Source: Blastocatellia bacterium (GTDB lineage: Bacteria; Acidobacteriota; Blastocatellia; UBA7656). Taken from it: DNA of 64,000 nt. The stretch is from NCBI GenBank assembly GCA_963765495.1, contig CAVXWP010000009.1:544001-608000 (forward strand), written 5' to 3'. The translations under genes and the position numbers were made by a program. Positions within the stretch are counted from its first letter, which is position 1; every line of letters starts with the position of its first letter. Positions 207 to 63,313 of this stretch are shown in pieces. Below the pieces are notes generated by a model. That model was not told the origin of the DNA, did not search any database, and saw only the letters and a list, made by a program, of their open reading frames with translations.

Positions 207-977
207 ATGATTCATCCGACAGCCATAATCAGCCCGAAGGCCGAGCTGGGCGCAAACGTCTCTATCGGGCCATACTCGATCATAGGCGATGATGTAATAC
301 TGCACGACTATGTGCGCGTGGGTAGCCATTGCGTCATCGAAGGCCCTTCGGAATTCGGGCGCGACTCGGTCTTTTTCCCCTTCGTGTCGGCGGGGCAGAC
401 TCCACACGATCTGAAATACAGGGGAGAGCGAAGCTGGCTCCGCGCCGGAGAGCGAAATACATTCCGCGAATTCGTTACGCTGCACAGGGGGACCGAAGGA
501 GGCGGCAACCTGACCCGGATCGGTTCGGATAACCTCTTTATGGCTCAATGCCACGTGGCGCACGACTGCCTGATAGGCGACCACGTGATATTTGCAAACG
601 GGGCCTCGCTTGCGGGCCACGTGCTGGTCGAAGACTACGTGACGCTCGGCGCATACTCAGGAGTGCACCAGTTCTGCCGGGTAGGCCGTCACGCCTTTAT
701 AGGCGCTTCCTCCGTAGTGGTCAAAGACGCATTGCCTTATGCGCGAACCGTAGGCAATCACGCCCGGTGCTATGGACCCAACAGGATCGGGCTTCGCCGT
801 CGTGGATTCTCCAATGATGAAATGCGACACATCTCGCATGCCTTTCACCTTTTACTCTCTTCGCGGCTCAACACTTCGCAGGCGCTTGAAGCCATAAAGA
901 GCGACCTGGGCAGTTGGCCCGAGATTGATTACCTGATCGAATTCATCGAGACCTCCGAGCGTGGAGTAACTAAATAG
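207..977 (+). CDS. lpxA: UDP-N-acetylglucosamine acyltransferase LpxA
   Basis: Hexapeptide repeats, IHPTAII start, HVAHDC and VHQFCRVG motifs, SERG end. Confidence 0.97.
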   Translation: MIHPTAIISPKAELGANVSIGPYSIIGDDVILHDYVRVGSHCVIEGPSEFGRDSVFFPFVSAGQTPHDLKYRGERSWLRAGERNTFREFVTLHRGTEGGGNLTRIGSDNLFMAQCHVAHDCLIGDHVIFANGASLAGHVLVEDYVTLGAYSGVHQFCRVGRHAFIGASSVVVKDALPYARTVGNHARCYGPNRIGLRRRGFSNDEMRHISHAFHLLLSSRLNTSQALEAIKSDLGSWPEIDYLIEFIETSERGVTK

Positions 978-1121
978 GGGCCAGGGGCCGGGGGTCAGGG
1001 GCCGGTATCACAAGAAGAGAGCGGGATCGGTAACAGATGGAAGACCATACTATCAGCAAATCACCGGGGCACCAGAATAATCACTCAACACCGGCCCCCG
1101 GCCCCCGACCCCCGGCCCCTA
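975..1121. repeat. Inverted heptamer array, GGGGYCR family
   Basis: Left arm 975-1006 taggggccaggggccgggggtcaggggccggt; right arm 1090-1121 accggcccccggcccccgacccccggccccta. Confidence 0.9.
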
Positions 1122-1930
1122 CTACAAAGTATGGATTGATAGCCGGTAACGGACGATTCCCTTTTCTGGTGCTCGAAGGGGCTCGCGCGAGTGGGGTCGA
1201 GATGGTCGTGGCTGCGATAAAAGAGGAGACCGCCCCCGAGATTGAAGAATTGACTCCGCAGATTGAATGGGTAGGCGTGGGGCAACTGGGTCGATTGATT
1301 CGCTTTTTCAAGCGAGAGCAGGTTACTCATGCCATCATGGCCGGTCAGGTCAAGCATCATCAAATCTTCCGGCTCAATGCCCTGCCCGATCTTAGAATGG
1401 TGCGTCTGCTTGCGCGGCTGGCATCGAAAAACACCGACAGTCTTATTGGAGCAGTGGCCGCCGAACTTGCCCGCGAGGGCATAACTCTGGTTGATTCGAC
1501 GACCTTTCTGGAATCATTTATCGCGCGCTCCGGGGTGCTCACGCGTCGCTCGCCTTCACGTCAGGAACGCGCAGATATTGAATATGGCCTGACGATTGCG
1601 CGAGAGATTGCCCGGCTCGACCTCGGTCAGACAATAGCCGTAAAAGATCAGGCGGTTGTAGCGATTGAAGCGATGGAAGGAACCGACGCGGTGATTCTGC
1701 GAGCCGGTGAGATCACAGGCAATCGCCCGTTCGTGGTTATCAAGACAGCCAAACCAAATCAGGACATGCGATTCGATGTGCCGGTAATCGGTATACCGAC
1801 CATCGAAGCTATGAGCCGCGCGGGCGCTACGGCTATACACGTCTCAGCCGATAAGACGCTCCTGTTCGACAGAGAAGAGTTGATCGCGCTGGCCGACAAG
1901 CTCAAAATTGCTGTGGTCAGTAAGCAGTAA
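1037..1930 (+). CDS. lpxI: UDP-2,3-diacylglucosamine diphosphatase LpxI
   Basis: GLIAGNGRFP, DLGQTI, AIEAMEGTD, KPNQDMRFDVPVIG motifs; follows lpxA. Confidence 0.93.
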   Translation: MEDHTISKSPGHQNNHSTPAPGPRPPAPTTKYGLIAGNGRFPFLVLEGARASGVEMVVAAIKEETAPEIEELTPQIEWVGVGQLGRLIRFFKREQVTHAIMAGQVKHHQIFRLNALPDLRMVRLLARLASKNTDSLIGAVAAELAREGITLVDSTTFLESFIARSGVLTRRSPSRQERADIEYGLTIAREIARLDLGQTIAVKDQAVVAIEAMEGTDAVILRAGEITGNRPFVVIKTAKPNQDMRFDVPVIGIPTIEAMSRAGATAIHVSADKTLLFDREELIALADKLKIAVVSKQ

Positions 1931-2082
1931 GCAGTATGCAGTAGGCAGTAGGCAGTTGTACTAGAGGCGGGTACCAACTATTCGCATCTATATATTGCCT
2001 TGCTGAGTTCGACCCTTTGACTTTGATCTTGATTATCAGGTCAACTGCCTACTGCCTACTGCTTACTGCATACTGCCTACTG
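1918..2082. repeat. Inverted heptamer array, GCAGTAG family
   Basis: About 5 GCAGTAG-like units at 1918-1958 facing about 5 CTACTGC-like units at 2042-2082; lpxI stop lies in the left arm. Confidence 0.92.
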
Positions 2083-2125
2083 TTTGTGGTAAACTGAATT
2101 TGAGTGAGAAACCCTATCAGAGCGA

Positions 2126-2836
2126 TTGAAGATGATCAGAAATACCCCGGCTGAATTCGACCCGGAAAGCGCAATTATAGACGCCGATCTGCTGGTCAAG
2201 TACCGCATGGTCAACCGCGCTATCGAGACGCTGGAACGTGCTATTGACAGCGCGCCGCGCCACGTAGGGCTACGCGAGAAATTGCGCGAGATATTGATAG
2301 AAGTGGGCCGCCGCGATCACGCTGCGCAGCAGTGTCTCGCGCTTGCGAGCCTTCACATCTCATCGGGCGATCTGGAAAGAGCCAACGAACGATTGCTTGA
2401 AGCCAAACGACTCGACCCGCGAGTCTCTGTAACCGGGCAACTTCACGACGTTCGCCGGACAACCGCGCCTCCGGCTCGCGCCGAGCCTTCGGCTACGGGC
2501 GCTCAAAAAATATTCTGGGGAAGCCTGGCCGATATAAATCTCTTTGACGTGGTGCAGATAGTAGAAAACAGCCGCCTCAAGGGAGCGCTGTTTATTGCAT
2601 CATCGGCCGGAGACGGCGAGATCTATTTCCGCGACGGACAGATCATCGGCGCAAAATCCGATCAAGAGACGGGTATGTCGGCGCTCAGCCGAATGCTTGG
2701 AGCAATTGACGGCACTTTCGAGTTCGAGAAATCTTCCAAAGAGCATGAGCAAACCATTCAAGCCAATAATAATACGGCCCTCATACTCGACATGCTGCGC
2801 GCCAAAGATGAAGAAGAATACGGGCTGGGATTGTAA
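2126..2836 (+). CDS. TPR-like plus DUF4388 (PatA_N-like) domain protein
   Basis: GSLADINLFDVVQIV...GEIYFRDGQIIGA...GTFEF is the DUF4388 pattern; helical N-terminus; start may be ATG 2132. Confidence 0.75.
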   Translation: MKMIRNTPAEFDPESAIIDADLLVKYRMVNRAIETLERAIDSAPRHVGLREKLREILIEVGRRDHAAQQCLALASLHISSGDLERANERLLEAKRLDPRVSVTGQLHDVRRTTAPPARAEPSATGAQKIFWGSLADINLFDVVQIVENSRLKGALFIASSAGDGEIYFRDGQIIGAKSDQETGMSALSRMLGAIDGTFEFEKSSKEHEQTIQANNNTALILDMLRAKDEEEYGLGL

Positions 2837-62023: not shown

Positions 62024-62027
62024 AGCG

Positions 62028-62822
62028 ATGAAGTCGTTACTGATCGTGGAGGACGAGAAACATCTTGCCGACGGATTGCGATTTAATCTCGAAGCCGAAG
62101 GGTATAGCGTAGACCTGGCCGAAGACGGCGAGGCGGCGCTCGAAGCGGTTATGCGCTCCCGCAAGACTTACGATGCGGTCGTGCTGGATGTGATGTTGCC
62201 CGGCATAGACGGATTCACCGTCGCCTCGGAGTTACGCAAGGCAAACCAGTTTGTACCCATCCTGATGCTGACGGCGCGGGGCCGCCCCGAAGATGTGCTT
62301 CGTGGATTTGAGAGCGGCGCGGACGATTATCTGACCAAACCCTTTGAGCTTGCGATATTGATAGCGCGTGTTCACGGTCTGATACGACGGCTCGAATGGT
62401 CGAGCAGAGAGCGCAAGCAGTCACAACCGGAACCTTCTTTATCCGAATATCGGTCGAAGGAAGCGGCATCTTCCAGCCCTTCGTCCGCGTCTGAAGATCA
62501 GGAATTTATCTTCGACGGAAAGACGATAGACTTCGATGCCCTCCAGATCAGAGTCGGCGAGCGGGTCGTGCAATTGACACTCATGGAAGCGGAGCTTTTG
62601 CGTTTTCTTACAAAGCGGACGGGTAAAGCCGTCTCGCGCAAATCCATGCTCGAAGAGGTGTGGGGGTTGCGCGAAGACACAGACACCCGCGCAATTGATA
62701 ATTTCATCGTCCGTCTGAGAAAGTACATCGAAGACGAGCCTTCAAATCCCCGTCACCTGCTGACGGTCAGAGGAGTCGGGTATCGCTTCGTTCCCTTTCC
62801 CGATTCGACAAACAACGTATGA
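62028..62822 (+). CDS. OmpR-family response regulator
   Basis: [32 protein letters not shown] 62028. Confidence 0.95.
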
Positions 62823-63187
62823 ATGAAAAGCTCGAAAAAACAGTCGAAACGCTCGGCGTAAACAGGATCAAACGCCACATCTTTTTGTGCTCGGATCAAA
62901 CCAAACCAAAATGCTCGGACAGAGTGTCGAGCCTTGAATCGTGGAATTATCTGAAGCGACGGCTCAAGGAACTGAATCTCGCGGAAGCGGGCGTCTATCG
63001 CACAAAGGCAAACTGCCTTCAGATATGTATGCAGGGGCCGATTGCGGTCGTCTACCCGGAGGGCACCTGGTATCACTCGTGCACGCCCGAGGTGATCGAG
63101 CGAATCGTTCAGGAACATTTGATCGAAGGCCGCCCGGTCAAAGATTATCTGATAACAGAACATCCCCTGCCCGACGCCTGCCGATAG
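62819..63187 (+). CDS. Thioredoxin-like [2Fe-2S] ferredoxin
   Basis: HIFLC...KC...[21 protein letters not shown]. Confidence 0.88.
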
Positions 63188-63195
63188 AGGGACGA

Positions 63196-63313
63196 GTGAT
63201 TCGTGATTCGTGAGATTTGTAATTATAGTAGCCTGTAGGGGCAGGGCTTGTCCCTGCCCGGATCGCCCGAAGGGCGATGAGTTTCTTGTGCGAAGCACGA
63301 ATCACGAATCACG
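63196..63313. repeat. GTGATTC inverted heptamer array with a nested GTAG REP (63235-63280)
   Basis: gtgattcgtgattcgtga ... cacgaatcacgaatcacg; REP is the exact reverse complement of 33503-33548. Confidence 0.9.

Follow-up and report, generated by a model that had tools for sequence, protein, structure and literature searches.

Stop-anchored hairpin elements with tandem-heptamer ends in a Blastocatellia genome belong to the same families as its 23S rRNA intervening sequence and the arms of its S23p genes

The stretch of DNA analysed here (64,000 nt, hereafter the window) spans positions 544,001 to 608,000 of contig CAVXWP010000009.1 (C9:544001-608000) in the 7.3-Mb, 17-contig assembly GCA_963765495.1 of a Blastocatellia bacterium (Acidobacteriota), and carries at its gene junctions short tandem arrays of 7-nt units, typically arranged as two inverted arms around a core. 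Genes adjoining these arrays include lpxA, lpxI, metK, leuS and holA, as an earlier note made from the letters of this DNA had named them and as NCBIfam agrees, together with an MsbA-like transporter and a PASTA kinase. The note had listed at least 14 such junctions and proposed one architecture common to several unit families; Tandem Repeats Finder (TRF) and reading of the sequence recovered period-7 arrays with the expected unit at 14/14 of them, and the common architecture was borne out. TRF returned 58 rows for the window, 22 with period 7 and mostly facing pairs. Automatic pairing resolved eight of the 14 as clean two-armed elements (976, 1918, 17360, 28983, 50450, 53343, 59682 and 63196), and the other six (8605, 21107, 27036, 32177, 43250 and 54330) have degenerate, heterotypic or very short arms visible by eye. 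An Rfam scan of the window gave 0 matches above the gathering score. The elements are given below with adjoining genes or open reading frames (ORFs) and, where folded, the predicted RNA folding energy and its z score.

976..1119, between lpxA and lpxI: arms 976-1003 (GGGGCCR units) and 1091-1119, core 87 nt; the arm edge falls within the lpxA stop TAG (975-977); fold -73 kcal/mol, z -5.5.
1918..2082, 3' of lpxI: arms 1918-1956 (CAGTARG units) and 2044-2082, core 87 nt; the lpxI stop TAA (1928-1930) lies inside the second unit.
8608..8701, degenerate GGGGYCR element directly 3' of the TAG stop of ORF 7732-8607: right arm about 8681-8701, with the next start codon 9 nt on.
17360..17480, GGGATGA element: arms 17360-17381 and 17452-17480, core 70 nt; 1 nt separates the right-arm end from the metK stop (17482-17484, minus strand); folds -60 and -65.7 kcal/mol, z -6.9 and -8.0.
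21107..21209, GCAGTAG-family element: short left arm from 21107, right arm about 21191-21209, adjoining the stop of minus-strand ORF 21210-21383.
27034..27081, compact GATTTGA-family element: array 27037-59 and a short facing arm; 13 nt to the stop of the minus-strand ABC-transporter gene 27094-28971.
28983..29071, GTGATNC element: heterotypic arms, left GTGATGC and right GTGATTC (right read inward), core 37 nt; right arm 5 nt off the stop of minus-strand ORF 29077-30375; fold z -2.8.
32169..32276, GTGATNC element: heterotypic arms 32169-32206 and 32250-32276; the right arm contains the stop of minus-strand ORF 32273-33316.
43250..43340, GTGATGC-family element between convergent genes: left arm degenerate, right arm 43321-43338.
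50450..50603, GCAGTAG element where leuS and ORF 50602-51639 converge: the stops of the two fall inside the arms.
53343..53436, TTTTGAR element directly 3' of the holA stop (TGA 53340-53342), ending upstream of the next gene's GGAGG.
54330..54375, compact GATTTGA-family array or palindrome beginning 4 nt 3' of the stop of ORF 53450-54325.
59682..59720, compact GATTTGA-family element that takes up the whole 48-nt gap separating ORF 59719-60933 from the convergent kinase gene (stop 59670).
63196..63313, GTGATTC element: arms 63196-63213 and 63291-63313, core 77 nt; 8 nt 3' of the stop of ferredoxin-like ORF 62819-63187; fold -62 kcal/mol, z -8.7.

These 14 elements are part of a genome-wide population of about 650 two-armed copies and about 1600 arrays. 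A combined scan for tandem and inverted repeats upheld the excess of period 7 implied by the earlier note: 1593/4209 de-duplicated TRF arrays across the genome have this period (1194 of them with at least 3 copies), compared with 225 of period 6, 288 of period 8 and 625 of period 9. After merging, 1610 period-7 arrays use 202 canonical units, a few of which dominate (GTGATGC 324 arrays, GTGATTC 177, GGGATGA 129, GAGATTT 116, CCGGGGG 112, AGGCAGT 106 and GAGTTTT 82). An inverted partner, defined as 14 nt or more of the unit's reverse complement no farther than 300 nt away, was detected for 1116/1610 arrays, against 55 in a direct-repeat control and 90 in a shuffled-unit control. Median lengths in the resulting 647 paired elements are 27 nt for arms and 44 nt for cores, with core lengths peaking at 40-50 nt and 70-80 nt. 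By location, 1213 arrays are intergenic and 171 are no more than 45 nt from the end of a predicted gene, leaving 226 that are situated farther inside predicted genes. A further 16 unpaired arrays have a partner 300-3000 nt away; the 13 intervals so delimited yielded no new cargo gene, being the four gene-carrying cassettes described below, composites in which a second palindromic repeat is nested, or pairs of independent elements on either side of ordinary genes.

The arms are oriented with little exception. Read 5' to 3' into the element, 1289/1294 arms hold more G than C, a polarity that is absolute within single families (AGGGATG 56/56, AGTTTTG 37/37). In this inward direction 823 of the 1294 arms close all three reading frames and 197 close none; in the outward direction 15 close all three and 1119 close none, and among random segments of equal length 14 close all three. 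Since 7 is not divisible by 3, a single stop triplet in the unit suffices to place a stop in every frame within three units. Such a triplet is present in the inward-read unit of 522/647 elements and the outward-read unit of 23/647, an enrichment that is more modest at family level because few families dominate the counts.

That one arm nearly always begins at or near a stop codon, as the earlier note had observed in the window, extends to the whole genome, where 549/753 stop-side flanks lie within -20 to +10 nt of a stop (mode -4 to +5). Anchored stops fall within the arm in 222 cases (76% TGA) and across its edge in 62 (71% TAG), and another 294 stops, 0-10 nt outside the arm, show ordinary stop-codon usage. 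This anchoring is not a mere result of short gaps, because the tight stop gap persists where 60-120 nt of residual intergenic DNA is left: of 46 such junctions, 38 have a stop gap of 10 nt or less and 0 have a start gap that small. Likewise, among 36 convergent regions in which one gap reaches 60 nt or more, 22 have no more than 10 nt on the other side, against 1.6 expected. For genome annotation, the arms provide genuine stop codons, generate false N-terminal extensions and appear able to replace a native start codon, as at lpxI in the window. Relatives start this gene with ATG AAG TAC GGA; in this part of the window (1037-1140), ACA stands in place of that ATG, and the open frame extends back through the right arm to ATG 1037 in the element core, with TTG 1136 as an alternative start. 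Judged from the letters, element 976..1119 may have changed how lpxI is started.

The cores establish that the elements are dispersed copies rather than products of local slippage. BLAST comparison of 587 cores of at least 25 nt gave clusters of 65, 48, 29, 19 and 13 members plus smaller ones, with 303 singletons at the sensitivity used. Every cluster is tied to a single unit family and a single core length, with its members split about evenly between the two orientations. The earlier note had proposed that the unit sequence is free; instead, each unit family is bound to its own conserved core, and several element lineages are therefore present. Among 19 elements we identified 13 pairs with cores at least 96% identical and flanks only ~56-73% alike, near the level of unrelated sequence. 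In such copies homology stops exactly at the outer arm edge, and unit number varies (for example, arms of 17/42 nt versus 33/27 nt). The leuS element (50450-50603) belongs to this set at unrelated loci, its 113-nt core being at least 96% identical to copies at C10:96951 and C7:726009 in unrelated flanks. Five more near-identical pairs sit in segments that are themselves duplicated (flanks 93-100% alike). The majority of copies are older: of the 166 cores with a full-length match, 113 have their best match at 85-95% identity. At the outer edges of the 647 elements, target-site duplications of 2-8 nt did not exceed an offset control, and an inverted repeat continuing beyond the arms, expected for insertion into a terminator loop, was rare (at least 5 nt in 20/647). 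The lengths of the two arms are weakly correlated (Spearman 0.14), and the major unit differs between arms in 302/647 elements. Position 6 varies freely in the GTGATNC family, indicating that each array is homogenised separately. Overall, these foldback elements with tandem-heptamer ends form a large and old family in which copying still takes place now and then.

The same families occur in ribosomal RNA. Both 23S rRNA genes (C7:378989-382121 and C7:680743-683875) contain a 93-nt ORF-less element with GAGTTTT arms (the first at C7:380273-380365). Rfam alignment puts this insert after model position 1218 and before 1219, within the loop that closes hairpin 1205-1227. This is the helix-45 loop, the classical site of 23S intervening sequences (IVSs). 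It folds with z -9.8 into a near-continuous stem. Used as a query, the insert matched ~20 dispersed genomic loci at full length with 72-78% identity and also the arms of a TTTTGAG cassette at C1:1070890-1071331; the window element downstream of holA belongs to this family too. A DNA query recovered the two flanks of the helix-45 site in eight relatives, and 7/8 have no insert there. In the literature, 23S IVSs are described as stem-loops that RNase III removes (PMC8708148). In Coxiella the terminal stem of the IVS measures 28 bp and tandem heptamers lie upstream of its S23p ORF; RNase III excises this IVS, cutting at the first tandem heptamer (PMC4990558). An RNase III gene is present in our genome. 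As separate observations, the 23S gene of one relative (G025, L209:645-860) holds a helix-45 insert of ~165 nt and different sequence, akin to GAGATCTC/CAAATTT palindromes, and in each rRNA spacer of our genome (C7:378562-378647 and 680313-680398) the interval from one tRNA gene to the other is taken up by a GGGATGA element, starting a few nt past one tRNA and ending 5 nt short of the next.

The earlier note had stated that similar heptamer arms often flank genes of the TIGR02436 (S23p, or 23S_rRNA_IVP) family, and gene-carrying versions were indeed recovered outside the window. The genome holds four TIGR02436 genes, all PF05635 with weak similarity to bAvd and one matching PDB 2rld, and 4/4 are flanked by inverted heptamer arms of the usual polarity. 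The arm units of the four cassettes all differ (CAGGGGC, TTTTGAG, AGGGATG and GATTTTG), and the proteins are mutually 15-21% identical. Each gene is co-oriented with its neighbours, with the left arm on the upstream gene's stop. Homologues of the AGGGATG-armed protein (57-73% identity) were found in metagenome-assembled genomes of Acidobacteriota, Chloroflexota, Verrucomicrobiota, Planctomycetota and Proteobacteria. A strict detector identified flanking inverted arrays at 34/80 of these homologous loci, with period 7 in 34/34, mostly RRGGATG-like units, and G>C in the 5' arm for 63 arms versus 2. Compared across these genomes, the sequences point to transfer of the whole S23p cassette between phyla. 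Taken together, the dispersed repeats, the helix-45 IVS and the arms of the S23p genes are the same element families. In other genomes, PF05635 genes lying between cmr genes have been interpreted as CRISPR-associated (PMC3936711).

At orthologous junctions the relatives differ through gain and loss of elements and turnover of their units; presence and absence, about which the earlier note had asked, were both encountered along with different units. At the lpxA-lpxI junction, read in 17 relatives, three have a bare gap of 13-32 nt, and a G-rich GGGGYCR-like element on an identical TAG is common to five genomes (the window, L005, L006, L008 and L017). Other states there comprise CAGTAGG (once nested around GGTTTMG), GTTGTSA, ATTCGTY, a 9-nt unit and plain palindromes. 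The 9-nt case is an inverted element in L009 (genome G017) with arms of the unit GTCTAGCGN. At the holA junction, metagenome contigs carry four different heptamer families exactly between the stop and GGAGG, with five states overall; the state consisting of the stop, 9 nt and GGAGG is ancestral-looking on sequence comparison. This HolA metagenome scan yielded no near-identical relative, the best being 73% identical.

In 7/30 relatives a TIGR02436 gene was not found. Array densities were taken from samples of 40-220 kb: genomes with 0 genes had 7 of 14 (G015), 2 of 6 (G008) and 1 of 2 (G019) period-7 arrays paired, those with 14 genes had 8 of 23 (G009) and 47 of 55 (G003), and one with 21 genes (G025) had 22 of 38. 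The association between TIGR02436 count and paired-array density is therefore suggestive and not clean, and related genomes are not independent samples. A member of a sister family, G020 (C1:1-520000), yielded 140 period-8 arrays over 520 kb, of which 88 are paired, with 8-nt units CCTTTGCG, TGTCTCTG, CTCCGTGA and ACAGGATT, and no TIGR02436 gene was found in it. Its polarity is reversed (G<C in 66 arms, G>C in 16), its arms lack stops (120/138 close no frame) and its three far pairs held no new cargo gene. Elements of G020 also occupy the lpxA-lpxI and lpxI-downstream junctions. The earlier note's proposal of a fixed period consequently stands for our own genome and fails elsewhere, given the 8-nt arms of G020 and the 9-nt arms at one relative's lpxA junction.

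We consider it probable that these are selfish foldback elements of the IVS type, tolerated at gene ends. Each is a hairpin-shaped, ORF-less DNA unit whose ends are inverted tandem 7-nt arrays, with the G-rich strand as 5' arm and a family-specific core of ~40-115 nt between them. Copies spread to unrelated loci by copy-and-paste or conversion, leaving no target-site duplication, and slippage and homogenisation inside single arrays later alter how many units an arm has and even what sequence they have. The elements accumulate immediately 3' of coding regions. Because most arms close all three frames inward, an element may touch or enter the last codons and still end the protein, the arm itself often supplying the stop; we infer that this tolerance accounts for the position. 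Once transcribed, the arms would form stems of the kind that RNase III removes from 23S rRNA, and mRNA cleavage would be likely, as an apparent side effect rather than a selected function. The S23p genes are best read as probable cargo in the loop rather than as the driver.

Several observations weigh against parts of this explanation. Occupancy is highest in convergent regions (153/686), intermediate in co-directional (446/3702) and lowest in divergent ones (47/678), a gradient that a terminator-like role would fit too. Families without stop triplets are also tightly anchored (median gap 0.5-4 nt), and stop-bearing arms therefore explain position incompletely. Stop-less families do enter ORFs less often (14% vs 28% at -4 or beyond). 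The stop-less arms of G020 lie farther out, at a median of 27 nt from the stop and almost never overlapping it, a looser position that fits the tolerance idea in a single comparison. The 226/1610 arrays deeper inside predicted genes may be false gene calls or real in-frame insertions, and gene coordinates come from a crude in-house caller whose start positions are unreliable. No insertion event was caught among the elements, and gene conversion between pre-existing elements could yield near-identical cores too.

The alternative that the elements are selected RNA or DNA signals of gene ends, acting as factor-independent terminators, 3'-end stabilisers or RNase III sites that tune operons and spreading by recruitment, appears unlikely. 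It would account for the 3'-end location and the occupancy gradient given above, for the retention of the G-rich element at some junctions across five genera, and for very stable stems: arm complementarity is 91.5% genome-wide, and the copies folded form stems of ~20-30 bp or more, with z between -5.5 and -9.8 in 6/7 folds and -2.8 in one. Against it, predicted pairs in five core clusters are kept in 72-96% of cells, but compensatory double changes there are not commoner than with slid partners, and mismatches in the arms show no strand bias in G.U pairs (247 on the transcribed, or sense, strand vs 246 on the other). A U-tract (at least 6 T in the 10 nt past the 3' arm) follows only 57/753. 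Core orientation is random with respect to the upstream gene and to transcription, many elements lie within operons (for example, lpxA-lpxI and holA-next gene), nearly half have mismatching arm units as counted above, and relatives lack elements at the same junctions. We saw no sign of selection on RNA structure, and overall the pattern looks like neutral decay of hairpin-shaped copies.

We regard as doubtful a second alternative, in which the S23p protein is a trans-acting factor that recognises the 7-nt arms and propagates loaded and empty copies in the manner of RAYT and REPINs, with one paralogue per unit family. Consistent with such a driver, the four genes each carry arms of a different family, every one of these families ranks in the top ten by abundance, the paralogues have diverged strongly, every armed homologous locus has period 7, and the weakly similar bAvd is a nucleic-acid-handling partner of a reverse transcriptase. 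Paired heptamer arrays are also sparse in the four sampled genomes where no gene was found (G015, G008, G020 and G019) and denser in G003 and G025. However, the largest families in our genome, GTGATNC (~500 arrays) and GGCAGTA, have no gene-carrying copy, yet include recent near-identical copies. Armed elements persist in genomes where no TIGR02436 gene was found, G015 among them, and G020 sustains a thriving 8-nt system; conversely, G009 has 14 genes and few paired arrays. The protein has no known catalytic motif, and in Coxiella S23p is apparently not made in vivo (PMC4990558). These observations do not bear out the earlier note's suggestion that the empty copies are non-autonomous forms of gene-carrying ones.

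Very improbable is that the arrays are ordinary simple-sequence repeats made by local polymerase slippage, with a heptamer preference from the replisome and inverted pairs arising by local palindrome growth or as G-quadruplex elements: PMC4692102 cites both an excess of heptamers across many bacteria and slippage as its explanation, unit number varies between near-identical copies and each arm is homogenised separately, but slippage as sole cause is contradicted by the family-specific conserved cores and near-identical copies at unrelated loci and disfavoured by the strict polarity, and G runs occur only in GGGGYCR and GGGATGA units.

Beyond the preferred explanation of tolerated IVS-type foldback elements, a broader and rather improbable idea is that tandem-repeat arms are the working ends of an unrecognised class of bacterial replicators, in which a trans-acting factor would set the period (pentameric S23p/IVP for 7 nt, another for 8 nt). 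IVSs, operon S23p genes, cyanobacterial and Xanthomonas heptamers and the bacterial heptamer excess would then be one system.

Other repeats were also observed in the window. Upstream of metK (18785-19010) there is a second palindromic family, AATAGGCC...GGCCTATT, whose internal units measure ~9-10 nt (CGCGGATTAG, for example); it is also nested in several heptamer-element cores, including that of the leuS element (50500-50580). A 14-nt unit forms a tandem array of four copies at 22396-22451, just 5' of ORF 22477-23316, and a 15-nt unit one of 5.3 copies at 24832-24910 within ORF 23511-25052.

Cyanobacterial short tandemly repeated repetitive (STRR) heptamers are tandem heptanucleotide repeats with many intergenic copies, known mainly as fingerprinting targets, and the earlier note had named them as the nearest described analogue. 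This is supported: cyanobacterial heptamers do belong among the nearest analogues, alongside those of Xanthomonas (PMC4692102, where STRR heptamers are cited for Calothrix). The convergent GGGAATC arrays of Xanthomonas and GGGGAYT arrays of Nostoc are tandem heptamers, mostly intergenic, with 70-75 convergent pairs whose G-rich strand runs plus then minus, the same polarity as here; the upstream ORF is much nearer than the downstream one, and length varies between close relatives (PMC4692102). Tandem 7-nt units, a convergent G-rich strand, intergenic position and a nearer upstream ORF were all found in our elements. Differences are that the published arrays use one unit per genome and are interpreted as G-quadruplex formers, and that the parts of PMC4692102 compared make no mention of conserved cores, an IVS link, S23p genes or three-frame stops.

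REPIN-RAYT systems likewise have two inverted arms and a spacer, hundreds of non-autonomous intergenic copies and a gene flanked by the repeats (PMC3116915, PMC3337134). Our arms, in contrast, are tandem 7-mers, and the flanked gene encodes a four-helix bundle without known transposase chemistry. A RAYT link was rejected, since neither of the two PF01797 (Y1_Tnp) genes in the genome is flanked by an array, the nearest being a single unpaired array ~1.4 kb from the gene on C17. The elements likewise lack the target-site duplication of miniature inverted-repeat elements derived from DDE transposons and, in all but the 57/753 noted above, the U-tract of an intrinsic terminator.

Eukaryotic foldback transposons have long inverted ends of short tandem repeats, a loop with or without genes and variable arm length. 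They are eukaryotic and much larger, and the analogy is one of form only.

The closest likeness is to the 23S IVSs, which are ORF-less in Salmonella and Campylobacter and S23p-bearing in Coxiella and Leptospira. Both have terminal inverted repeats and a stem of at least 20-30 bp, both have an optional S23p/PF05635 ORF in the loop (the four loaded copies here, outside the window) and both are sporadic among relatives. The Coxiella IVS has tandem heptamers at the RNase III cut (PMC4990558; reviewed in PMC8708148), and the helix-45 IVS of our genome itself belongs to the dispersed TTTTGAR family. Unlike 23S IVSs, the 14 copies of the window lie at protein-gene junctions rather than at the tips of helix 25 or 45, and hundreds of copies are spread genome-wide. 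Our literature search returned no description of IVS-type elements dispersed at gene ends and nothing joining dispersed heptamer hairpins, IVSs and S23p genes. The origin and movement of 23S IVSs, the role of the S23p/IVP four-helix-bundle genes and the excess of 7-nt repeats between bacterial genes have been treated as three separate questions; in this one genome they are visibly the same object, which offers a concrete study population of ~650 copies, recent ones included, with four loaded copies and two rRNA copies.

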